In this document: piece after piece, positions 797 to 60,608 of the stretch
Position numbering within the stretch: the stretch's first letter is position 1
Layout: the number at the start of each line of letters is the position of its first letter
Assembly: GCA_001824435.1 (NCBI GenBank)
Contig: MHXH01000016.1
Span: 14,970-78,969, forward strand
Origin: Parcubacteria group bacterium RIFCSPLOWO2_01_FULL_48_18
GTDB taxonomy: Bacteria > Patescibacteriota > Minisyncoccia > UBA6257 > WO2-01-48-18
Reading direction: 5' to 3'
Length of the DNA stretch: 64,000 nt
Notes under the pieces: generated by a model
Database searches by the model: none
Seen by the model: only the letters and a program-made list of their open reading frames with translations
What the model was told of the DNA's origin: nothing
Made by a program: the position numbers and the translations under genes

Positions 797-1531
797 TTAA
801 AAAAATGAAAATCCTTTCAGGAATTTATCAAAGAATATTGATTCTTCACTATTGTCTTTTATTGGTTCGAAGAAATTGAAATGAACAACATAGAAAAAAT
901 CTTTCGTATCTATCCAAAATTGGTGAGGACAAGTATTGGGATCAACTTTCATTCCATACCATTGGGACGCAGAACATTCCACCGCTCCTTTCCATGTCCC
1001 AGTGTTCATTTGAATTTCTTTCCCAGTAAGACAGTAAACATATTCTTCGTATTGGGATTCACTGGACAAATTTCTACTTCCTGCGGCAACCGGACATTGC
1101 GAATTGGAAGCGAACATTTTTTCATAAGAAGAATCTATCGAAGAAGATATTGGTTTCTTAATAATAGTAATACCACCCACGATAGCTATGACCTCTCCAT
1201 TTTTAATTTCTTGCAATTGAACGAAAGGAAAATGAGTATCCTCGTCTACCTTCCAATAAGCCGGATATTGAAACTCAAGCCCATATTTTTCACTACGATA
1301 CACCTTCCAGTCATCGGTCGATGGCGAGGAGCTCGTCGTTTTATTGGAAGGTTGCGTAGCAGTTTGAGTGGATGTCGGAGTTTTTACTTCATTGGATACA
1401 GGCGCTGGTTGTTGAGTTTGAATTTCCGTAGGAGCCACGGATTTCTTGGAAAAAATGAAATACCCACCGATTGCAACAATAGCAATGACAACGAAAATCA
1501 AAACAATATTTACAAATCCCTTTTGACTCAT
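797..1531 (-). CDS. Hypothetical membrane-anchored exported protein. The likely start is at MSQKGF (1531); the ORF track extends it to 1603.
   Basis: An N-terminal hydrophobic helix (IVLIFVVIAIVAIGGYFIF) is followed by a Thr/Ser/Pro-rich linker and a Cys-containing globular part. Confidence 0.5.
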   Translation of the reverse strand: MSQKGFVNIVLIFVVIAIVAIGGYFIFSKKSVAPTEIQTQQPAPVSNEVKTPTSTQTATQPSNKTTSSSPSTDDWKVYRSEKYGLEFQYPAYWKVDEDTHFPFVQLQEIKNGEVIAIVGGITIIKKPISSSIDSSYEKMFASNSQCPVAAGSRNLSSESQYEEYVYCLTGKEIQMNTGTWKGAVECSASQWYGMKVDPNTCPHQFWIDTKDFFYVVHFNFFEPIKDNSEESIFFDKFLKGFSFF

Positions 1532-1654
1532 ATGATTAAAAATTTTTCTTCCCCCAAAATGCGAAACCGCCAATTCGTTTTTACCCCCAAAATTGAATAC
1601 CAATTAGTCGCCGAGCGAAGCGAGGCGAACCTTTTAAACTTGCAAATTCCTTTC

Positions 1655-1966
1655 TGGTGCCGCGGGAGGGAATCGAACCCCCTACGCCAGCCTCTTCCTG
1701 GCTGATTTTGGACTATATCATCTCCGTTCTTCGCGCAAGAGTGCGGAGTCGGGCGCTTGTGCAAGATTATTGTTGGGACTCACTTGCTAGTCTCTACACC
1801 TTCTAAGAAATCTCCACCGGCTGGCGGAGCCCCCCTTAGCTTGGCTCGGGGTTGTTCTGACGGCATGTCGGAGTGTTCCCCGAATTCACCCGATTTTACA
1901 GTCTGCATTACTGCAGAAAGCCCCAAAGAATTTCAGGGCTGCGCTCTACCAATGAGCTACCGCGGC
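1655..1966 (-). tRNA. tRNA-Phe (anticodon GAA) interrupted by a ~237-nt intron in the anticodon loop. The intron is probably group I.
   Basis: The 5' exon (1966..1930, minus strand) reads GCCGCGGUAGCUCAUUGGUAGAGCGCAGCCCUGAAAU: acceptor stem, U8, D-arm GCUC/GAGC and anticodon stem CAGCC. The 3' exon (1692..1655) reads GGCUGGCGUAGGGGGUUCGAUUCCCUCCCGCGGCACCA: anticodon stem partner GGCUG, T-arm GGGGG-UUCGAUU-CCCUC, acceptor CCGCGGC complementary to GCCGCGG, discriminator A and encoded CCA. The intervening ~237 nt contain a GACUA...GAGUC P7-like pair. Confidence 0.8.
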
Positions 1967-2064
1967 AATCATGTTTAGACTATACCAATTTTTTGATTCC
2001 TTCAATATGCCCCATAATTTTTATGTTTAAGGGTGGGGGGCGGCGCGAAACGAGGTAGGAAACC

Positions 2065-12373: not shown

Positions 12374-14188
12374 ATGGGTTTCATCAATCCGTTTGGCGCG
12401 TCGTCGCCAAAACAAAAAATCGCTGTTCCTACCGCATACGAGATGGGCGGTAAGGACATCAAGGACATAATTTCTCCGCCGGCGCTTGAAATCGAGTCGA
12501 ACTTCCTCAAGCTCGGCAAGAAATTCGTCAAGAGCTACTTCGTATTCACCTATCCCCGCTTTCTTGTCAGCGGCTGGTTTTCTCCGATCATCAACATGGA
12601 CAAGGCGATGGATATCGCCATTTTCGTCCATCCAATCGAAACCGCAACAGCGCTGAAAAAGCTCCGCAGAAAAACCGCTCAAGTCCAAGCGCAGCTCGCC
12701 GAGCGGGAAGAAAAAGGATACGTATCCGACCCGGCGCTCGAAACCGCCTACCAGGACATCGAATCGCTCCGCCAATCGCTCCAGCAATCAACGGAACGCC
12801 TCTTCAATGCAGGGCTGTACTTCACCCTCTACGGAGACACGCTTGAAGAAATAAACGCCGTGGAGTCAAAGATCGTTTCAATCCTCGAGGGCCAGATCGT
12901 GTACACCAAGCCGTGTCTCTTCCAACAGTATGAAGGATTCGTATCAACGCTACCGCTCGGACACGACAAAATACTCATACACACCCCGCTTAATTCCGGA
13001 CCCATTTCTTCGTTCTTCCCGTTCGTTTCTTCTGACCTTACGTCAGACAAGGGTATTCTCTACGGCATCAACCGCCACAACAACAGCCTCGTCATATTTG
13101 ACAGGTTTTCAATGGAAAACGCGAACCAGGTCCTGTTCGCCAAGTCCGGTTCCGGGAAATCCTATACCACTAAGCTCGAAATCCTGCGCTATCTTATGCT
13201 CGGCACCGACATCCTCATCATCGATCCGGAAAACGAGTATCAGAATCTTTCGGACACCGTAGGCGGCGCGTTCTTCAAAATATCCCTGACATCCGATTAC
13301 CACATCAACCCATTCGACATCCCGAAAATTCCGAAAGGAGAAGACCCGGGAGACGTCTTGCGTTCGCATATCGTCAATCTCTCCGGCCTCCTCAAACTAA
13401 TGCTCGGTGGCGTAACGCCCGAGGAAGACGCCGTGTTAGATCGGGCTATCACCGAAACCTACGCCTCACGCGACATCACGCCTGACGCCGACTTTTCGGG
13501 GAAAACGCCGCCGCTCATGCAAGATCTCCAAACCGTGCTTGAAAACATGGAAGGCGCAAAAGACGTTGCCGCAAAATTGGAAAAATATACCAAAGGAACG
13601 TACAGCACGTTCATCAACCAACCGACGAACATCGACGTCAAAAACCGGCTTATCGTATTCAGCTTGCGCGACCTGGAGGACCAGTTGCGGCCGATGGCGA
13701 TGTACATCGTGCTCAATTTCATCTGGGGACTTATCCGCGCAGAGCTTAAACGCCGCCTCCTCATTATCGACGAGGCGTGGTGGATGATGAAAAGCGAAGA
13801 CAGCGCGTCATTTCTCTTCGGCCTGGCCAAGCGCGCGCGGAAATATTACATGGGGGTAAGCACCATCACGCAAGACGTGGAGGACTTTCTAAAGTCACCG
13901 TACGGAAAACCGATCATCACCAACTCGGCAATTCAGATCCTCCTCAAACAGGCGCCTTCTTCTATCGACGCGGTGGCCAAAACATTTAACCTCACCGAAG
14001 CAGAAAAACAACTATTGCTTGAAAGCGGAGTGGGGGAAGGATTGTTTTTTGCCGGACTCAAGCACGCAGCCATCAAGGTCATCGCTTCCTACACCGAAGA
14101 TCAAATCGTCACCACCAACCCGCAACAAATCATGGAGCAACAAAAGCTGTCGGAGCAAATAGAAAAAATGAAGGAAAAAACAAACTAA
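12374..14188 (+). CDS. VirB4/TraE-type conjugal-transfer ATPase, C-terminal ATPase portion (604 aa)
   Basis: Walker A FAKSGSGKSYT and Walker B LLIIDEAWWMM. The YPRFLVSGWFSPII segment is typical of VirB4 just after the N-terminal domain. Confidence 0.75.
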   Translation: MGFINPFGASSPKQKIAVPTAYEMGGKDIKDIISPPALEIESNFLKLGKKFVKSYFVFTYPRFLVSGWFSPIINMDKAMDIAIFVHPIETATALKKLRRKTAQVQAQLAEREEKGYVSDPALETAYQDIESLRQSLQQSTERLFNAGLYFTLYGDTLEEINAVESKIVSILEGQIVYTKPCLFQQYEGFVSTLPLGHDKILIHTPLNSGPISSFFPFVSSDLTSDKGILYGINRHNNSLVIFDRFSMENANQVLFAKSGSGKSYTTKLEILRYLMLGTDILIIDPENEYQNLSDTVGGAFFKISLTSDYHINPFDIPKIPKGEDPGDVLRSHIVNLSGLLKLMLGGVTPEEDAVLDRAITETYASRDITPDADFSGKTPPLMQDLQTVLENMEGAKDVAAKLEKYTKGTYSTFINQPTNIDVKNRLIVFSLRDLEDQLRPMAMYIVLNFIWGLIRAELKRRLLIIDEAWWMMKSEDSASFLFGLAKRARKYYMGVSTITQDVEDFLKSPYGKPIITNSAIQILLKQAPSSIDAVAKTFNLTEAEKQLLLESGVGEGLFFAGLKHAAIKVIASYTEDQIVTTNPQQIMEQQKLSEQIEKMKEKTN

Positions 14189-18297: not shown

Positions 18298-18636
18298 CTA
18301 TCTCGTGGCGCGCCCGAGAAGCGCTCGAAGCTCTTCCCGCATAGAGCCCTCGACCCGCCGTTCCGACATCGCGCCCGATTTTACAAAAACACAAATATCG
18401 TGTCCGCCTCCCGTAACCTCTTCCTTCCGTATCGTTTCTGTCAATACCCTACGTAAACGATTCCTCGCTGCCGCGCGCATACGTCCTCCCACCATGACCG
18501 CATATCTGTTATACGGAAGGCCGCTTGCTTTCGCGCCGACGCCGAGAAAGCGCCCGCGAACAAAACGATCAAACTTCTGCCGCGACCCGGGCAGGCGATT
18601 TCTAAAAAGCGGCAGTCGTAATTTTCTCTTCAACAT
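18298..18636 (-). CDS. rnpA: Ribonuclease P protein component
   Basis: A basic ~112-aa protein between rpmH and yidC. Confidence 0.65.
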   Translation of the reverse strand: MLKRKLRLPLFRNRLPGSRQKFDRFVRGRFLGVGAKASGLPYNRYAVMVGGRMRAAARNRLRRVLTETIRKEEVTGGGHDICVFVKSGAMSERRVEGSMREELRALLGRATR

Positions 18637-18684
18637 AGGTATGGCGAGGGCCTATCCCCCCGACACGGCGAACCGAGATATGCG

Positions 18685-18825
18685 TTACGGACGTGCGTAC
18701 GGCGCAAGCACGCCTCTTTTCTTGCGGCGTCTGCGCACTAAAACCCGACGACCGCCGGGCGTCTGGCTTCTCTTCAAGAAACCATGCGTCCGTCGCCGTT
18801 TCTTCTTTTTCGGCCGGTACGTCAT
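18685..18825 (-). CDS. rpmH: 50S ribosomal protein L34
   Basis: The translation [46 protein letters not shown] matches the L34 signature. It is absent from the ORF track (<60 aa) and was found by hand translation. Confidence 0.8.
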
Positions 18826-19044
18826 TGACATTACTATTGAGATTAGCAAGAATGAAGTAAAAATTCAACGCGTTGCGCGACACAGAACACGGTGCCGCAT
18901 CGCATCCAAAAACCGTCTTATGTTGTCCACACCTTGTACACATTCTCTGCTTAAAATAACTTTGCAACCCTCGACAATATATTTTATGATTCGCACATGC
19001 GCGCCGCATTAATGCCGTCGCTGATGCTTTAAATTTGTTCCCAT
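18826..19044. promoter_or_regulatory. rpmH-dnaA intergenic region, candidate oriC/dnaA promoter with DnaA-box-like 9-mers
   Basis: TTGTCCACA at 18923..18931 is one mismatch from TTATCCACA. TTGTACACA and AT-rich stretches are also present. It sits in the classical rpmH/dnaA divergent position. Confidence 0.45.
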
Positions 19045-20403
19045 ATGAACATAAACCTTGAAGATTTTTGGAAAAACGTACTCGGCGAAGTAGAACTCGA
19101 GATATCAAGGCCTAATTTCGTCACATGGCTGAAGGGCAGCCGCCTTGTAGACAAAAAGGACGGCGTCGCGCTGGTAAGCCTTCCCAGCAACTTTGCCCGC
19201 GAATGGGTGGAAAACAAATACAATAAATTGATACTCCGTTCGCTGCGCGCGCTCGACCAATCCTTAAAGCGCGTGGAATACACCATCGACGCTTCTCAGC
19301 ACAACAAGATCCTTCCGCAGAAGACGCCGGTACTCATTACCAACCAACTTGCGTTTCAAGAATTCAGAGTCGATCCAGAAACAAATCTTAACCCCCGGTA
19401 TACGCTCTCATCGTTCATCGTTGGTTCATCAAACGAACTCGCGTACGCGGCAACGACCGCAGTGATTAACGAAATCGGAACAAAGTACAATCCGCTTTTC
19501 ATTTACGGAGGCGTGGGTCTTGGAAAGACTCATCTGCTGCAAGCGATGGGCAATGAAATAAAAAACCTGCACAAAAATAAAATTCGCGCGCGGTATGTAA
19601 CGTCGGACCGGTACGTCAACGACGTAGTGTGGGCTATCCGCAACAAACGGATGGACGACATCAGAGAGAAATACAGGAACGTTGACATCCTCATCATTGA
19701 CGACATCCAGTTTGTCGGCGGCAAAGAGAGAACGGAAGAGGAATTCTTCCATACATTCAATGCGCTGTATGAAATGAATAAACAAATTGTTATATCGTCG
19801 GATCGCGCCCCGCGGGCAATTCCCACCCTTGAAGAACGCCTGCGTTCGAGATTCGAAGGCGGAATGATCGCCGATATCGGGTTCCCAGACTACGAAATGC
19901 GCGTTGCCATTCTGAAAACGAAACTGCAAGAAAAAAATCAGGAATTACCGGACGACATCATCGATCTTGTCGCCTCCCGCATCCAGCGCAACATTCGAGA
20001 ACTTGAGGGAGTCCTCAATCGGATCTTGTTCCATCAACAGAAAAAAAACGAACCGGCAAGCATTAAAACCGCAGAAGGAATCATTCAAGAAAATGCGACG
20101 CAACCGGTTAAACAAATCAGTTTTCAGCAGATCACGCAAGCCGTATCTTCGTTCTTCGAAATCCCCGAAAAAGACCTCCTGGGGCGTTCGCGGAAGAAAG
20201 AAATCGTGTTTCCGCGCCAAATTGCCATGTACATCATCCGAGAAGAGCTCAGTGCGTCTTATCCCGAAATCGGGAGCAGGCTCGGGAAAAGGGATCACAC
20301 GACGGCGATTTATGCCTATGAAAAAATATCTAAAGAGATTCAGAAAAACCCCGCGCTCGCGAGTAAAATCAACTTATTGAAAGAGAAAATACATAACAGT
20401 TAG
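19045..20403 (+). CDS. dnaA: Chromosomal replication initiator protein DnaA
   Basis: AAA+ Walker A GGVGLGKTHLL and a C-terminal DnaA-box-binding domain. Confidence 0.9.
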   Translation: MNINLEDFWKNVLGEVELEISRPNFVTWLKGSRLVDKKDGVALVSLPSNFAREWVENKYNKLILRSLRALDQSLKRVEYTIDASQHNKILPQKTPVLITNQLAFQEFRVDPETNLNPRYTLSSFIVGSSNELAYAATTAVINEIGTKYNPLFIYGGVGLGKTHLLQAMGNEIKNLHKNKIRARYVTSDRYVNDVVWAIRNKRMDDIREKYRNVDILIIDDIQFVGGKERTEEEFFHTFNALYEMNKQIVISSDRAPRAIPTLEERLRSRFEGGMIADIGFPDYEMRVAILKTKLQEKNQELPDDIIDLVASRIQRNIRELEGVLNRILFHQQKKNEPASIKTAEGIIQENATQPVKQISFQQITQAVSSFFEIPEKDLLGRSRKKEIVFPRQIAMYIIREELSASYPEIGSRLGKRDHTTAIYAYEKISKEIQKNPALASKINLLKEKIHNS

Positions 20404-20594
20404 TAACCCTGTGAAATGGCATTGGATAATTACTGAACAAGCGCGATGTTCCGAAGGACGTCCTGTCGCTTTCCGCTTTATACAGTTTTTCCCCCCAACT
20501 TATACTCCTTCTTTCTCCTTACGAATAGAGACAAAAGAGGATAAAGAATAAGAAACAAAGCGTTGTCCACTTATCCCCTCCCCCTACTATAACT
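20404..20594. promoter_or_regulatory. dnaA-dnaN intergenic region with DnaA-box-like motifs and an AT-rich element (second oriC candidate)
   Basis: TTGTCCACT and TTATCCCC near 20560..20578, ATTGGATAA at 20421, and the AT-rich aaaagaggataaagaataagaaacaaag. Confidence 0.4.
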
Positions 20595-21719
20595 ATGAAA
20601 TTATTAATATTAAGAGAGAATTTAAAACAGGTAGTAGGTATTGTTGATCGCGCCGTGAGCAATTCGTCTTCTCTGCCGGTACTAAGAAATATTTTGGTAA
20701 TCGCAGCAAATGGTACCATTTCTGTTTCTGCAACAAATTTGGAATTGGCCGTTACCGCGACGCTTACCGGCAAGATTACCGAAGAAGGTTCACTCACTAT
20801 TCCTGCACACGTCTTTTCTGCAATCGTAGGAAGCGTTTCTTCGGAAAAGATACATCTCGAAAAGAAAGGGAATTCGGTACTGGTAAAGACAGACAACTAT
20901 GAAGCCGCGATTCAAACGATCCACGAAAAAGAATTTCCCATTATACCGAAGGCAAAAAATACGCGCGAGTTTATAGATATCGACGGCAATCTTTTAAGGT
21001 CTGCTTTCGACCAGGTAATTAATGCGGCTGCAACGGTCTCGGATTTTCGTCAAGAACTTTCCGGAGTATTATTTTCTTTTCAAGGGGATTCGATTATCTG
21101 CGCCGCAACCGATAGCTTCCGGCTCGCTGAAAAAACGATATCACACGCTCAGTACCAAACTAATATCGAAAAAGGTTTTACGGTTATTATACCGGCGAAG
21201 AATGTTCAGGAGCTTATTAAAATACTACCGTCGGGAACGGTTCGCATCCACGTCGACCAGAATGAAATCATTTTTAAAAACGAGGAACGTGAGATCGTTT
21301 CGCGCCTTATTGAGGGAAAGTTTCCTGATTACCGGAATATCATTCCGACGTCATTTGATTTCAACGCGCACGTGCCTATCAATGAGCTTCTGGAAGGCCT
21401 CAAGCTCGTTCATGTGTTTGCAAGTCGGCTCAATGATATTAAAATAGCGATTGCCGATAGTCATAAAACCGCTGAATTATCTTCGCGCGAAACCGGCTTA
21501 GGAGAAAACCGTTACCTCGTTCCGATAAAAGGAGAGGGGACGGCGTTTGAAGTCATGTTTAACGGCATCTACTTCTCGGACGGATTGAGGTCTGTCGCAA
21601 AAGCGGCAAAAAACGAGAGGGCATTTCTCGGGCTCAACAAAAGTTCTCGCCCTTCCCTCATACGAGCGGTTGAAGACAAATCGCTTCTCTATGTTCTTAT
21701 GCCTATCAGGCAGCCGTAA
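20595..21719 (+). CDS. dnaN: DNA polymerase III beta sliding clamp
   Basis: Follows dnaA; 374 aa with a three-domain clamp pattern. Confidence 0.85.
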   Translation: MKLLILRENLKQVVGIVDRAVSNSSSLPVLRNILVIAANGTISVSATNLELAVTATLTGKITEEGSLTIPAHVFSAIVGSVSSEKIHLEKKGNSVLVKTDNYEAAIQTIHEKEFPIIPKAKNTREFIDIDGNLLRSAFDQVINAAATVSDFRQELSGVLFSFQGDSIICAATDSFRLAEKTISHAQYQTNIEKGFTVIIPAKNVQELIKILPSGTVRIHVDQNEIIFKNEEREIVSRLIEGKFPDYRNIIPTSFDFNAHVPINELLEGLKLVHVFASRLNDIKIAIADSHKTAELSSRETGLGENRYLVPIKGEGTAFEVMFNGIYFSDGLRSVAKAAKNERAFLGLNKSSRPSLIRAVEDKSLLYVLMPIRQP

Positions 21720-24586: not shown

Positions 24587-24667
24587 TGAAATAGAGTGTT
24601 TAGCGCTTAGCGTTCAGCGTTTATCCGCCAGCCGGCGGACTAATCGCCATACTCCATACCCTAAACC
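24587..24667. repeat. Intergenic repeat element: heptamer arrays (TAGCGCT..., CCCTAAA x2) flanking the 16-bp palindrome TCCGCCAGCCGGCGGA (24624..24639)
   Basis: Direct reading. Confidence 0.6.
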
Positions 24668-38369: not shown

Positions 38370-38450
38370 ACCGACGCTAAATTTTAAATGCGAAAAACGC
38401 GAAACCGATGCTAAATCCGCCAGCCGGCGGATATAAATGCGAAACAGCCT
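38370..38450. repeat. Repeat element: AAATGCGAAA x3 and GCTAAAT x2 flanking a second copy of the 16-bp palindrome TCCGCCAGCCGGCGGA (38416..38431)
   Basis: Direct reading. Confidence 0.55.
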
Positions 38451-45640: not shown

Positions 45641-48028
45641 ATGGATCGATTTTCTGCAAAGTTTCATGTAGCTCTTTTGTGCGGCGGCCCATCGCTTGAG
45701 CGGGGCATTTCCCTCAATTCTGCCCGGTCGGTAGTGGACCATCTCGAATCCGAAGAAATCTCCGTACAGCCAATCTATTTTGATTTCAGGAAAAATCCCT
45801 ACAAAATTTCAAGGGCGCAATTGTATTGCAACACTCCCTCTGATTTTGACTTCAAGTTGAACCGAACGGCAACGCCGTTCACGGAACGATCGCTTGTCCG
45901 TTTTCTCAGGGCGGTAGATATTATTTTCCCCGTTATGCACGGACCATTCGGCGAGGACGGCGAGATCCAGTCTTTTCTTGAACGGTATAACCTCCCGTTC
46001 GTCGGCTCAGGGGCAAAAACATGTAAAAAGGCCTTTGATAAATTTACTGCAAATGAATATATAAAACAGCACGGCTTTTTTACTTTGCCATCGGTTGTGC
46101 TCAAGATATATCATCACGATCATAAATACATTCTCGAAAGATTTTTCAAAGAGTATCGAGTCAAGCGTGCCGTGGTAAAACCCGCAAGCGGAGGATCGAG
46201 CATCGGGGTGTTTTCGGTATCCAGCGCTCGCGAAGCGCTGGAAAAATCGAACCTTCTTTTCTCGAGACGAATGGACACCCGTGTCGTAGTTGAACCCTTT
46301 GCCAAGGGGGCAGAGTTTACGACTGTCATGCTTGAAAATCGTTTCGGGCTGCCGGTTGCGTTGCCGCCCACCGAGATCGAAACCGACTATGCCGAGCATC
46401 AAATTTTCGATTTCAGGAAAAAATACCTGCCGACTCGCCAAGTAACATGGCATTGCCCCCCCAGATTTGATAATTGGACGATCGAAAAAATTCAAGCGCA
46501 GGCAGAACAACTGTTTGCGTTATTTCATATGCGCGATTTTGGCAGATTTGACGGTTGGGTACTGCCCGGCGGAGATATCTGGTTTTGCGATCTTAACCCG
46601 ATAAGCGGCATGGAGCAAAATAGTTTTCTGTTTCAGCAGGCATCGCGCATCGGCATGACGCACGGCGATGTGCTGCGTCACATTGTTAGAAGGGCATGCG
46701 AGAGATACGGCATAGATTTTCCAGAGATCGTCCTGAAGCCCCCCGCGCGCCGCAAAAAGGTAAATATCATAATGGGCGGCGACAATTCCGAAAGGCAGGT
46801 TTCTTTGATAAGCGGTACGAATGTATGGCTTAAGCTCCGCCGCTCCAAGCGGTACGAACCGCAGCCATATCTGTTGGATACCAGAGGTTATGTATGGCGG
46901 CTGCCCTATCATCTGTGTTTGAATCATACTGTTGAAGAAATTGCCGAGGATTGCGAGGGGTATCAATATACGAAGAACAGACTTGCTGTATTCGAAGAGC
47001 GCGCTCGGCTGCGATTGGGATTCTTGAAACCAAAAGACAAAGAAGAATTTTTTGAACCGAGCAAATTAGCGTTCAAGAAGTTCATTAAAACATCGGACCT
47101 CATTTTTATCGCCCTTCACGGAGGCGACGGAGAGAATGGAAATTTGCAGAAATTGCTTGGCGCGCAGGGAGTAAAGTTCAACGGTCCGTACGAAGAAGCG
47201 TCCCGACTTTGCATGGACAAGTGGGACACTGCAAGCTTTATCAACAACGCGGGTATCGCGGGCGTCAGTGCTATTCCAGGCAAAACGATTGAAACCCGTG
47301 CCGTGCTCCGGTTCGATGACCGGGGCATCAGATTATTCTGGCGAAAAACCAGGAAGGAGATTGGGGCAAAGACGTTGATCGTAAAGCCTCGCGCCGACGG
47401 TTGCACCACCGGAGTTGTTCATCTCCGCTCGCCGAACGACCTTAAAAAATACGCAGAGCTGCTCTTTAAAAAAGCGCCCGTTGTGCCGCGGCAGACATTT
47501 AGGGGGCAGAGGGATATTATAGAAATGCCTCCGGCCTTGCCCCGTGACCTGCTCTTCGAGAAATTTATTGAAACCGACGCATTGCGCGTTAAAGCCGGTA
47601 CGTTAAAATATCAGCGTCGCACGGGGTGGATTGAAATTACTGTCGGCATCGTTGAGATAGACGGCGAACTCAAGGTCCTTAGTCCAAGCATTACCGTGGT
47701 TGAGAGCGAAGTGTTAACCGTAGAGGAAAAGTTTCAGGGCGGCACCGGCGTCAACATTACGCCGCCGCCGCCGAGCATCATGAAACCGGCAGTACTCAAG
47801 AGGGTGAAGGACCTGATTGAGGAAGTCGCGCGCAAGATCGGCATCCGCGGTTATTCGCGGATTGACGCGTTTGCCAATGTTGACAGCGGCGACGCGTTGA
47901 TTATCGAGGTAAACACGCTGCCCGGCCTTACCCCTTCAACCGTTTTTTTTCACCAGGCGTTGGCAGAATCACCTCCGCTTTTTCCCGCGGAACTCCTGGA
48001 GATTTTGATCCGGAATAAAAGGTATTAA
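45641..48028 (+). CDS. ddl: Tandem-domain D-alanine--D-alanine ligase family protein (two ATP-grasp Ddl-like modules fused)
   Basis: The Ddl N-terminal signature occurs twice (HVALLCGGPSLERGISLNSA and KVNIIMGGDNSERQVSLISG), each followed by an ATP-grasp region. 795 aa. Confidence 0.6.
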   Translation: MDRFSAKFHVALLCGGPSLERGISLNSARSVVDHLESEEISVQPIYFDFRKNPYKISRAQLYCNTPSDFDFKLNRTATPFTERSLVRFLRAVDIIFPVMHGPFGEDGEIQSFLERYNLPFVGSGAKTCKKAFDKFTANEYIKQHGFFTLPSVVLKIYHHDHKYILERFFKEYRVKRAVVKPASGGSSIGVFSVSSAREALEKSNLLFSRRMDTRVVVEPFAKGAEFTTVMLENRFGLPVALPPTEIETDYAEHQIFDFRKKYLPTRQVTWHCPPRFDNWTIEKIQAQAEQLFALFHMRDFGRFDGWVLPGGDIWFCDLNPISGMEQNSFLFQQASRIGMTHGDVLRHIVRRACERYGIDFPEIVLKPPARRKKVNIIMGGDNSERQVSLISGTNVWLKLRRSKRYEPQPYLLDTRGYVWRLPYHLCLNHTVEEIAEDCEGYQYTKNRLAVFEERARLRLGFLKPKDKEEFFEPSKLAFKKFIKTSDLIFIALHGGDGENGNLQKLLGAQGVKFNGPYEEASRLCMDKWDTASFINNAGIAGVSAIPGKTIETRAVLRFDDRGIRLFWRKTRKEIGAKTLIVKPRADGCTTGVVHLRSPNDLKKYAELLFKKAPVVPRQTFRGQRDIIEMPPALPRDLLFEKFIETDALRVKAGTLKYQRRTGWIEITVGIVEIDGELKVLSPSITVVESEVLTVEEKFQGGTGVNITPPPPSIMKPAVLKRVKDLIEEVARKIGIRGYSRIDAFANVDSGDALIIEVNTLPGLTPSTVFFHQALAESPPLFPAELLEILIRNKRY

Positions 48029-57971: not shown

Positions 57972-60608
57972 ATGTCAATAACCGAAAAAATCATTATAAA
58001 AGGCGCTCGGGTGCATAACTTGAAAAACATCGGCCTTGAGCTACCGAAGAATAGATTGATTGTTTTTACCGGCCTTTCCGGTAGCGGGAAGTCGTCTTTG
58101 GCGTTTGACACTATTTTTGCCGAAGGTCAGCGAAGATACATTGAATCGCTCTCGCCGTATGCGCGGCAGTTTTTGGGCCAGATGGAAAAGCCGGATGTTG
58201 ACGATATCGAAGGACTTTCGCCGGCAATTTCAATTGATCAAAAAGCACATTCGCACAATCCCCGCTCTACCGTGGCAACGCTTACCGAGATTTACGATTA
58301 TCTGCGGGTATTGTTTGCGCGCATCGGCAAACCGCACTGTCCGATCTGCGGAAGAGTAATCCATAAAATGAGCGTGGAAGAAATGGTTGAAACAATACAA
58401 GCGAAAAGCGAGGAGCGAAAAGGGAAAAGTGAATATGCTATGATTTTAGCGCCAGTGGTGCGCGGACGGAAAGGAGAATATTTTCAATTGCTCCAAGATT
58501 TATTCATGGAAGGGTTTGGCGAGGTGCGGATTGACGGTAAATTTCATTCTCTCCACGAACGCATTGAACTGGGAAGATATAAAATGCACACCATTGAAGC
58601 GGTAGTTGATAAGCTGGCGATCAATGATCGGCCACGATTATTTGAAGCAGTGGAAACCGCACTTGATAAAGGAAAGGGGTTGGTGAATGTAATTTTTGAC
58701 GGCCCGAATATCAAGACAGCGGATGTCCAGAAATTGCGCAAGGTTAGGACGTCCGATGTCCAAAATATTGAGGCTGCAAATGAATTATTGCTTTCCTCTC
58801 ACTGGACATGCCCTCACGACGATTTTGCGTTTCCGGAAATTGAGCCGCGCCTGTTTTCTTTTAACAGCCCGTATGGCGCGTGCGAAGCGTGTTCGGGCAT
58901 TGGCCACGATTATTTCGATCCTTCGATTCTTTGCGAAACGTGCAAGGGTAAACGCCTGAAGAATGAATCGCTTGCGGTCAAAATACGCCATCAGAGCATT
59001 GCGGATCTCTCGGCGCTCACGATCGATAAGGCGTATGAATTTTTCGGCACGCTTGAGGCGCATCTGAATGAGAGCGAAAAGATCATCGCTTCGAACCTGT
59101 TGAAAGAAATTGTTTCGCGGCTTGAATTTCTCCTTGAGGTCGGCCTCGATTATATTACGCTGGATCGCGAGGCCGGCACGCTCTCGGGCGGAGAATCGCA
59201 GCGCATCCGGCTGGCCAGCCAGATTGGATCAAAACTTTCCGGCACGCTCTATGTGCTCGACGAGCCCACTATCGGCCTTCACGAACGCGATAATGAACGG
59301 CTACTCAAAATTCTTAAAAATTTGCGCGATCTCGGCAATACCGTGATCATGGTTGAACACGATGAGCGGGCCATCCGCGAATCCGACTATTTGGTGGATA
59401 TCGGTCCGGGGCCGGGGAGGCGCGGCGGAGAGATTGTGGCAGTCGGTCCGATTCCGGAAGCATTGAAAGCAAAAAAAGAAAAATCTCTCACGCTGCAGTA
59501 TTTGAACGGGAGCGAAAAAATAGAAATTCCACAAACTCGGCGCACGAAAAATAAAGGATGGCTGGGATTTGTCGGCGCTCATGCAAACAACATTAACAAT
59601 CTCAATTTTGAAATCCCGCTCGGCAGGTTGGTCTGCGTTACCGGCGTTTCCGGAAGCGGCAAATCAACGCTGCTCGAGAATATCGTGTACAAGAATCTGC
59701 AATTGAAACTCGGAAGATTCGGCGACCTTGAACATGTCGCGAAAGTAACCGGAGTTGAATATATCAGCCGCGTCGTAGAGGTGGATCAATCGCCGATCGG
59801 CAGAACTCCTCGTTCGAACCCCGCGACATATACCGGCGTATTCGCGCCGATCCGTGATCTTTTTTCCATGCTTCCGGCATCACGGGAGCGCGGGTACCGT
59901 CCGGGCAGATTCAGCTTCAACGTTCGGCCAGCTGGCGGAGGCGGCCGATGCGAAGCGTGCGAGGGCGCAGGAGCGAAAATCGTCAAGATGCACTTTTTGC
60001 CTGACGTGCTGGTGAAGTGCGACGTTTGCCGCGGCAAGCGGTTTAACAGCGAAACGCTTCAGGTACAATACAAAGGAAAGCATATTGCCGAAGTGCTCGA
60101 CATGACTGCTGAAGACGCACATGAGCTGTTTGAGGGCATATTTACTGTTGCGGATAAGCTGAAGGTAATGCGGGAGGTCGGCCTTGACTATATAAAACTC
60201 GGCCAGAGCGCGACGACGCTTTCCGGCGGCGAAGCGCAGCGAATAAAATTGTCCAAAGAATTGGCGCGGCCGCTTGCGCGCAATACTGTATTCATTCTGG
60301 ATGAACCGACCACCGGCCTGCACTACCACGACGTGAAAATGCTGTTACGGGTTTTAGATCGGTTGGTGGAAAAAGGGAATACCGTTCTTCTGATCGAACA
60401 CAATATGCACGTGATTAAAACCGCGGATTACATCATTGATATGGGCCCTGAAGGAGGAGGTCGCGGCGGAAAAATCATCGCCACCGGAACGCCGGAGGAA
60501 ATCGCGAAGAACAGACATTCGTATACGGGCAGATACCTGAAAGGTTATTTGACACGAAAGGAAGGTGGGGCTCATAAAGCAAATAGCCTACCGACGCGAA
60601 GCCGGTAG
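57972..60608 (+). CDS. uvrA: Excinuclease ABC subunit A
   Basis: Two ABC ATPase modules ([20 protein letters not shown]) and zinc-finger Cys clusters. Confidence 0.9.

Follow-up and report, generated by a model that had tools for sequence, protein, structure and literature searches.

The window examined here, a stretch of 64,000 nucleotides (nt) of contig MHXH01000016.1 from Parcubacteria group bacterium RIFCSPLOWO2_01_FULL_48_18 (GCA_001824435.1), a member of the Patescibacteria from groundwater, carries near its beginning a phenylalanine tRNA gene, tRNA-Phe(GAA), whose anticodon loop is interrupted by an intron. The gene occupies positions 1655..1966 of the minus strand, on which all the elements of gene and intron described below are found, and it is complete, with a pre-tRNA of 312 nt that includes an encoded CCA (ARAGORN -i, i(34,237)). 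The 5' exon (1935..1966, 32 nt) comprises tRNA positions 1-33 and ends in ...CAGCC-C32-U33. The intron (1698..1934, 237 nt), supported by a match to Rfam family RF00028, by covariation and by homology, runs from GAAAUUC to CAGCCAG, with its last guanosine (omegaG) at 1698. The 3' exon (1655..1697, 43 nt, or 40 plus CCA) opens with G34-A35-A36-G37-A38 and continues through the stem strand GGCUG, the variable loop, the T arm and the 3' strand of the acceptor stem to A73 and the CCA (1657-1655). In the 5' part the gene reads GCCGCGG-UA-GCUC-AUUGGUA-GAGC-G-CAGCC-CU, then the 237 nt of the intron, and in the 3' part GAAGA-GGCUG-GCGUA-GGGGG-UUCGAUU-CCCUC-CCGCGGC-A-CCA. Every component of a cloverleaf is thus in place: an acceptor stem (GCCGCGG/CCGCGGC), a D arm (GCUC/GAGC), a T arm (GGGGG-UUCGAUU-CCCUC) and the two halves of the anticodon stem (CAGCC/GGCUG). 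Once spliced, the sequence is folded by ARAGORN into a canonical 75-nt tRNA-Phe cloverleaf, A73 and CCA included. A preliminary description of this DNA had already proposed a tRNA-Phe(GAA) gene with an anticodon-loop intron of about 237 nt and had listed the same stems, arms and CCA, leaving the strand unstated; the sequence and the intron mode of ARAGORN agree with it in these respects.

With default settings ARAGORN reported no tRNA anywhere in the 64-kb window, and with introns allowed it reported a single one, tRNA-Phe(gaa) with a 237-nt intron. The gene lies between an Lnt-like gene and a gene for a small membrane protein, all on the minus strand. Six further public contigs from this organism have exactly the same pre-tRNA sequence, and an allele lacking the intron was not encountered among them. 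A consensus scan found no canonical minus-strand sigma-70 promoter; by eye, a candidate -10 element, TATAGT, preceded by TG (an extended -10), can be made out at 1979..1984 on the minus strand, 12 nt upstream of the 5' end of the tRNA, and it is possible that this is the -10 element of the tRNA promoter.

Within the seven nucleotides of the anticodon loop, the junction between positions 33 and 34 is the only one compatible with a 5' exon ending in U, U(-1), and an intron ending in omegaG. This junction is taken as the splice site because U33 forms a U.G pair in P1, the last nucleotide of the intron is G, and the 3' exon forms a P10 helix of 5 bp with the intron. On the sequence and its homologues, the insertion between U33 and G34 is the correct one, as the preliminary description had offered among its two options. 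The placement at 34/35 returned by ARAGORN was rejected as an artefact of the G that flanks the junction on either side: a U is required as the last exon nucleotide, and the introns of many homologues begin with A, which removes the one-nucleotide ambiguity. The predicted junction of the ligated exons, read from the sequence, is ...CAGCCCU-GAAGAGGCUG....

The Rfam model RF00028 (Intron_gpI) aligns along its whole length (positions 1-253 of 253) with 1687-1944 of the minus strand, scoring 51.8 bits where the gathering score is 50 (E = 2.9e-10), and no other Rfam family exceeds its threshold in the window. The group I assignment of the preliminary description, which was to be given up if no such match were found, is therefore retained. 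A model of P1 to P10 derived from the window sequence was projected on a MAFFT alignment of 85 non-redundant family members (less than 90% identical), and base pairs were counted. Standard pairs occupied 91.9% of the cells, compared with 39-52% when the 3' partners were slid by 1-3 columns; both-sided, compensatory changes were found in 47 pairs, and none of 500 shuffles matched any observed measure. Covariation was seen in P2, P3, P6, P7.1 and P8 and in the acceptor and T stems of the tRNA. P4, P7 and P10 were near-invariant, an invariance that was partly imposed by the search pattern; 15 genome-derived members obtained with another pattern, in which UCUUY was not required, have the same P10 and the same core. 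The modelling from P1 to P9 that had been recommended thus gives a group I fold supported by 85 homologues, in which the P9 hairpin is absent.

P1 (1919..1940) is formed by the exon sequence AGCCCU (1940-1935) and an internal guide GGGGCU (1924-1919), with U33 in a wobble pair with G, as indicated by the Rfam alignment and by covariation. All four of its core pairs form in 100% of the sequences, and one shows covariation (CG in 56 sequences, GC in 29); the U.G pair is present in 85/85. P10 joins GAAGA of the 3' exon (1693..1697) to the intron sequence UCUUU (1929-1925), which is the 5' part of the guide and directly adjoins GGGGCU; the helix has 5 bp and is 100% paired in the 85 sequences, with either C or U as the partner of G34. 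An omegaG is found in 113/113 mapped members, G having been required there for mapping. P2 (1902..1917) is a hairpin, UCUGCA-GUAA-UGCAGA, with a GNRA-type loop; all six of its pairs covary, it is 97.6% paired, and it appears in the minimum free energy (MFE) fold. P3 pairs UCGGG (1889..1893) with CCCGA (1753-1749), is 100% paired and has two covarying pairs (CG/UA/GC and UA/CG/UG). The P4-P5-P6 domain (1803..1883), supported by covariation and the MFE fold, includes P4 (1883-1878/1851-1846, 99.8% paired), P5 (1872-1867/1861-1856), which is variable in length and aligns poorly, P6 (1839-1835/1807-1803, 95% paired, every pair covarying), and a P6a hairpin, CUCCGCC-AGCC-GGUGGAG (1812..1829), which contains a near-copy of a palindrome considered below and is also present in locus L089.

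P7 pairs GACUA (1792-1788) with UAGUC (1715-1711), is supported by the Rfam alignment, 99.8% paired and invariant in the 85 sequences, and crosses P3 to form the pseudoknot of the core. The P7-like pairing suggested earlier, GACUA with GAGUC, names the wrong partner, as GAGUC (1781-1777) belongs to a hairpin loop, that of P7.1. This P7.1-like hairpin, GCAAG-UGAGUCCCAACAAUAAU-CUUGC (1761..1787), stands between P7 and P3', where the Rfam alignment shows 30 inserted nt; its stem covaries and is 84% paired. The window intron has this one hairpin here, while some 40% of family members have two. P8 (1722..1748) is a hairpin, CUCCG...CGGAG, that is 85% paired, with four of five pairs covarying, and is found in the MFE fold. 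The ViennaRNA MFE fold independently yields P2, P3, P4, P5, P6, P6a, P7.1 and P8. An internal P9 hairpin is absent, just 13 nt separating P7' from the 3' splice site, and most other members of the family have none either. There is no endonuclease open reading frame (ORF) internal to the intron: the overlapping ORFs, 1528-1764 (minus strand) and 1757-1978 (plus strand), of 73-78 amino acids (aa), extend well outside it and continue into flanking DNA or the 5' exon. In a consensus scan, the P6a hairpin together with AUUUCUUAGA (1812-1829 plus 1802-1811, minus strand) was flagged as terminator-like inside the intron. This signal is probably irrelevant because the U-rich stretch is the 3' strand of P6, but some premature termination there may still occur.

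Homologues of the intron were retrieved with two patterns. The first, which used P7', the 3' junction and the T loop as anchors, was applied to a collection of one genome per species and found 18 places, 15 of which are intron-containing tRNA-Phe genes, all from metagenome-assembled genomes of Patescibacteria (Saccharibacteria, Liptonbacteria, Ryanbacteria, Staskawiczbacteria and Parcubacteria); the other three (L013, L021 and L023) were discarded as chance matches in coding DNA. The second, anchored on the 5' side only (P10/P1 and P3-P4), was applied to metagenomes and found at least 120 loci, with an intron-containing tRNA called for 106 of the 120 listed. More than 120 homologues were retrieved in total, more than 100 of them from metagenomes, and every named organism among them belongs to the Patescibacteria. 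Across the 113 sequences that were mapped, the intron is 195-336 nt long (median 223), the cloverleaf is perfect, and the intron is preceded by C32-U33 and followed by GAAGA without exception. The family forms at least 87 clusters at less than 90% identity, and, among the matches listed, the window intron has its closest relative at 75% identity. No intron-less tRNA-Phe was found in the window or in 155 fetched loci. The host of the window is likewise a member of the Patescibacteria: the DnaA, MetRS and H+-pyrophosphatase encoded in the window have identical counterparts both in Parcubacteria group bacterium RIFCSPLOWO2_01_FULL_48_18 and in ...HIGHO2_02_FULL_48_10b (GCA_001824395.1).

A peculiarity of the exons concerns position 37. 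The tRNA-Phe of 113/113 mapped members has G37 (position 1694 in the window; loop CU-GAA-GA), whose partner in P10 is C. In bacteria A37 is the usual state for tRNA-Phe, G37 being that of archaea and eukaryotes. Among the other tRNAs of the fetched loci that lack an intron and have A36, 17 carry A37 and two carry G37.

The last nucleotides of the intron form a tail that resembles the host tRNA. The sequence CAGCC (1700..1704) is a copy of the 5' strand of the anticodon stem (positions 27-31), and permutation and MFE folding indicate that it can pair with GGCUG of the 3' exon (1692-1688). The tail tracks the stem of each host (CAGCC, UUCGC, GACGC, UCGCC, CUUGC, CAGGC and others). In a sample unbiased with respect to the tail, the mean helix between a tail and its own 39-43 strand was 4.04 bp, against 2.87 bp with non-cognate strands, a value reached in 0/5000 permutations. 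A tail:exon helix of at least 4 bp is possible in 64 of 91 distinct sequences, and in 63 of these 64 it starts exactly at position 39. Where tail and exon strand differ, pairing with the 3' strand is kept in 44/73 differences compared with 21.3 expected, a figure inflated by transition bias, and in L025 and L036 the tail pairs where the exon itself is mismatched. The unconstrained MFE fold of the window precursor (-118.7 kcal/mol) contains both P1 and the hairpin of tail and 3' exon; the energy is -110.8 kcal/mol when the exon-exon anticodon stem is imposed and -111.3 kcal/mol when the tail is blocked. The tail (e.g., AGCC-UU-G) also mimics the 5' exon's last nucleotides (AGCC-CU). No description of such a tail element was met in the literature, in a search that was not exhaustive.

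Considered together, the above data make it very probable that the locus is a functional Parcubacteria tRNA-Phe(GAA) gene, split between U33 and G34 by an ORF-less group I intron of 237 nt whose removal would be needed to produce the 75-nt tRNA. The alignment and pair counts establish, at the level of sequence, that the requirements of a group I intron are all present and under purifying and compensatory selection, and that both exons of the tRNA have been kept intact. Judging by the Asn and Asp 35/36 relatives, splicing is probably guanosine-dependent and takes place without protein. Several points weigh on the other side. The Rfam score is just 1.8 bits over the threshold, and the intron folded by itself has a modest z-score (-1.5). 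The status of the gene as the sole copy of tRNA-Phe refers to the 64 kb of the genome in the window, and a second, intron-less tRNA-Phe gene could lie elsewhere in the genome. The intron is without an internal P9, and efficient splicing in vivo may need a protein cofactor. The published splicing assays were confined to 35/36 introns of tRNA-Asn and tRNA-Asp (Nakagawa et al., 2026; PMC13011429). Lastly, the tail is equally complementary to the internal guide (mean helix 4.15 bp), and its pairing with the exon falls below 4 bp in 27 of the 91 distinct sequences (about 30%).

A mechanism can be proposed for such an intron. Sequence and comparison show that the 5' exon's last nucleotides (A28-U33) pair with the guide GGGGCU to give P1, with U33.G as a wobble, and that G34-A38 of the 3' exon pairs with UCUUU, just upstream of the guide, to give P10. 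The formation of P1 would open 2-4 bp of the anticodon stem and free its 3' strand, GGCUG, which the CAGCC-A-G tail could then re-pair. The resulting tail:exon hairpin would be a mimic of the anticodon arm, holding omegaG and G34-A38 in its loop and displaying the 3' splice site there, and the guide would read this mimic loop through the 5-bp P10, the codon-anticodon triplet included. On the established group I pathway, exogenous guanosine would attack after U33, omegaG would move into the G-site of P7, and the 3'-OH of U33 would attack after omegaG, joining the exons. Following ligation, the exon CAGCC would displace the tail, in effect a strand swap. The data are also compatible with a tail that is only a mimic of the guide's substrate, although 63 of 64 in-register tail helices contain pairs that P1 does not reach.

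The alternative that survives best is that the intron is a genuine group I intron that depends on a protein cofactor or chaperone in vivo and splices inefficiently alone. The missing P9 and the short distance from P7' to the 3' splice site would fit with such a dependence, and a protein could bind to the P7.1 loop (GUGAGUCCCAACAAUAAU), which is conserved, and to the palindromic hairpin, which recurs. All elements of the catalytic core are present, however, and Asn 35/36 relatives with the same core and P7.1 loop self-splice in vitro in the absence of protein (PMC13011429); protein dependence is considered unlikely. A far smaller probability attaches to a disrupted tRNA pseudogene with a dead, never-spliced insertion. 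While default ARAGORN is blind to the gene and the Rfam score is barely above threshold, a pseudogene does not explain why the core, the U.G pair, omegaG and P10 are invariant in 85 homologues less than 90% identical, with compensatory changes in the stems, or why the exons form perfect cloverleaves in 113/113 mapped members. In addition, the sole tRNA-Phe gene of a complete Doudnabacteria genome has such an intron, and the locus is identical in six independent assemblies.

It is similarly improbable that the intron is actively mobile and was recently acquired, whether by homing or through a phage. Mobility is known among group I introns, and HNH endonuclease genes are found in some of the Asn 35/36 relatives from Patescibacteria, but every published tRNA intron with an endonuclease gene exceeds 500 bp, and 237 nt is too short for such a gene; introns of the family measure 195-336 nt. 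Searches of viral contigs and phage records with the intron gave no matches, the closest relative among the matches listed is only 75% identical, and both tail and guide covary with the host's own anticodon stem, which argues for a long vertical co-evolution. The remaining candidate, a protein-spliced intron of archaeal or eukaryal type with 38/39 junctions, to which the exons of 37 and 38 nt in the preliminary description belong, gives a product that also folds as tRNA-Phe (loop CUGAAAU) but is almost certainly wrong, since the intron would end in A and not G, the 5' exon would take the first 5 nt of the P1 loop, the anticodon loop would vary across the family with the 5' end of the intron (GAAAU, AAAUC, GAAUC and so on) whereas GAAGA is invariant, and the interior is a group I ribozyme supported by covariation; moreover, we know of no bacterial splicing endonuclease.

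The palindrome within P6a has a wider distribution. The 16-nt sequence TCCGCCAGCCGGCGGA (TCCGCCAGCYGGCGGA) has exact copies at 24624-24639 and 38416-38431 of the window and a copy with two mismatches at 59924-59939. The near-copy that had been noticed inside the intron (1813-1828) lies in the P6a hairpin and differs from TCCGCCAGCCGGCGGA by one mismatch. The consensus, TCCGCCAGC[C/T]GGCGGA, corresponds to a hairpin UCCGCC-AGCY-GGCGGA that is not followed by a run of T. The fetched Patescibacteria DNA, 0.92 Mb in all, has 16 sites that differ from it at no more than one position, compared with an estimated ~0.04 by chance. In family members the palindrome occupies the tips of peripheral helices that differ from one to another: P5 in L083 (156-171), P6a in L089 (2434-2449), P8 in L130 (2200-2215) and probably P5 in L061 (4562-4577), the last judged from its place just after the 5' strand of P4 in a locus that was not mapped; it is intergenic in L030, L034, L056, L066, L087, L092, L115, L122 and L129. 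A recent insertion into the window intron was ruled out, as L089 has the same P6a hairpin; from this comparison, the copy in the window is an inherited P6a hairpin. The palindrome looks like a short dispersed hairpin module, and it may have settled repeatedly in the tolerant hairpin tips of ribozymes in Patescibacteria. That the tail is an undescribed strand-swap element of Phe 33/34 introns and, jointly, that the palindrome is a dispersed hairpin settling in ribozyme tips is a tentative proposal, which is somewhat more likely to fail than to hold.

The window is part of the chromosome and lies near its origin, rnpA-yidC/dnaA/dnaN being at about 18-22 kb. The genes dnaA (19045-20403) and dnaN (20595-21719) have rnpA and yidC upstream on the opposite strand (18305-21719 in all), and it is likely that the window spans the replication origin, about 17 kb from the tRNA-Phe gene. 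Next to the latter, an ORF of 274 aa on the plus strand (881-1705), publicly annotated on the identical contigs, overlaps the 3' exon and 8 nt at the intron's 3' end, ~50 nt altogether. The ORF at 797-1603 on the minus strand has a start ATG at 1531, an N-terminal hydrophobic segment and a weak PsbP_2 match; it looks like the real gene of the two, and the called ORF at 881-1705 is probably spurious. Elsewhere in the window, an ORF of 795 aa (45641-48028, plus strand) has two sets of D-Ala-D-Ala ligase N- and C-terminal domains and appears to be a tandem-duplicated or fused Ddl of about twice the usual length. A TraG-type P-loop ATPase (12374-14188, plus strand; PF19044, E 1e-30) has neighbouring genes that are without family assignment, and this region may be a type IV secretion or conjugation-like module.

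The present gene is overlooked by standard tRNA finders, so that the genome would wrongly seem to be without tRNA-Phe, which affects estimates of completeness and translation capacity for genomes of the candidate phyla radiation (CPR). Earlier work (Williams, 2020; Nakagawa et al., 2026) had already reported that self-splicing introns are retained by Patescibacteria in essential tRNA genes present as one copy, and the biological gain beyond this is small. What is added here is the abundance of the family in metagenomes, an intron that lacks P9 and ends in a copy of the strand displaced by P1, and the presence of G37, unusual for bacteria, in all members.

The host range of bacterial tRNA introns has been enlarged in recent years. 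In the work of Williams (2020; bioRxiv 10.1101/2020.01.27.920355), the four classical settings of group I introns in bacterial tRNAs were widened to 21, with high frequencies in metagenomic assemblies of unnamed phyla. A survey of 95 complete Patescibacteria genomes (Nakagawa et al., 2026; mSystems, PMC13011429) lists a single Phe(GAA) 33/34 intron (Table 1/S3), in Doudnabacteria GCA_016699995.1, on which ARAGORN, tFind (Williams, 2020), which calls it Phe(GAA) 33/34, and the authors' own pipeline agree; this genome, a complete one, has no tRNA-Phe gene besides the one with the intron. The preliminary description was correct that tRNA-Phe is not among the four classical hosts, and a tRNA-Phe(GAA) 33/34 intron was nonetheless already in that Table 1; the present locus is a new case of this published Patescibacteria class. 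Literature searches on group I introns in tRNA-Phe located nothing beyond the works cited here. The type was found in one of the 95 complete genomes (PMC13011429), yet it is abundant and diverse in groundwater metagenomes.

The window intron and that of GCA_016699995.1 are 73% identical over 210 aligned positions. They have in common the host tRNA, the anticodon, the 33/34 site, the junctions CU|GAA...AG|GAAGA, the core, the loop of the P7.1 hairpin and a short tail copying the 5' strand of the anticodon stem. The window intron is 26 nt longer, mainly through an extra P6a hairpin with the palindrome, and the hosts belong to different groups, the Parcubacteria group and the class Doudnabacteria. 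The anticodon stem is CAGCC in the window and GACGC in GCA_016699995.1, and guide and tail are changed to match. The Asn(GUU) 35/36 intron of GCA_016700035.1, which self-splices in vitro (PMC13011429), is 64% identical over the aligned positions and has the same P3-P8 core, the same P7.1 hairpin with the loop GUGAGCCCAACAAUAAUC, no ORF and a similar size (234 nt). It is inserted two nucleotides further 3' and in a different tRNA, and it has a proper P9 hairpin before omegaG where the window Phe intron has only the 13-nt tail.

The classical IC3 introns are those of Azoarcus tRNA-Ile (36/37), Anabaena tRNA-Leu (34/35) and cyanobacterial tRNA-fMet (33/34). Like them, the window intron is small, ORF-less and situated in the anticodon loop with U(-1) and omegaG, and its J3/4-P4, J6/7 and P7 sequences are similar (GAGCCAAGC, GGUGNAGAGACU); identity to the Anabaena intron is 51%. 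In the classical IC3 arrangement P7 is followed directly by P3' and a P9 is present, whereas the window intron has the 27-nt P7.1 hairpin between P7 and P3' and no P9. Hairpins in this position (P7.1/P7.2) are a trait of subgroup IA, and the window intron has one. In the Patescibacteria survey, no tRNA intron was classed as IC and nearly all were assigned to IA by published subgroup models (Nakagawa et al., 2026), and the P7.1 feature of the window intron agrees with this non-IC classing. A last difference concerns the anticodon stem. In the Azoarcus and Anabaena precursors the exon-exon stem is intact and supports a short P1 (PMC3895272), while in the window intron only 2 nt separate the splice site from the stem, which P1, a helix of 4-6 bp, must invade, opening 2-4 of the stem pairs.

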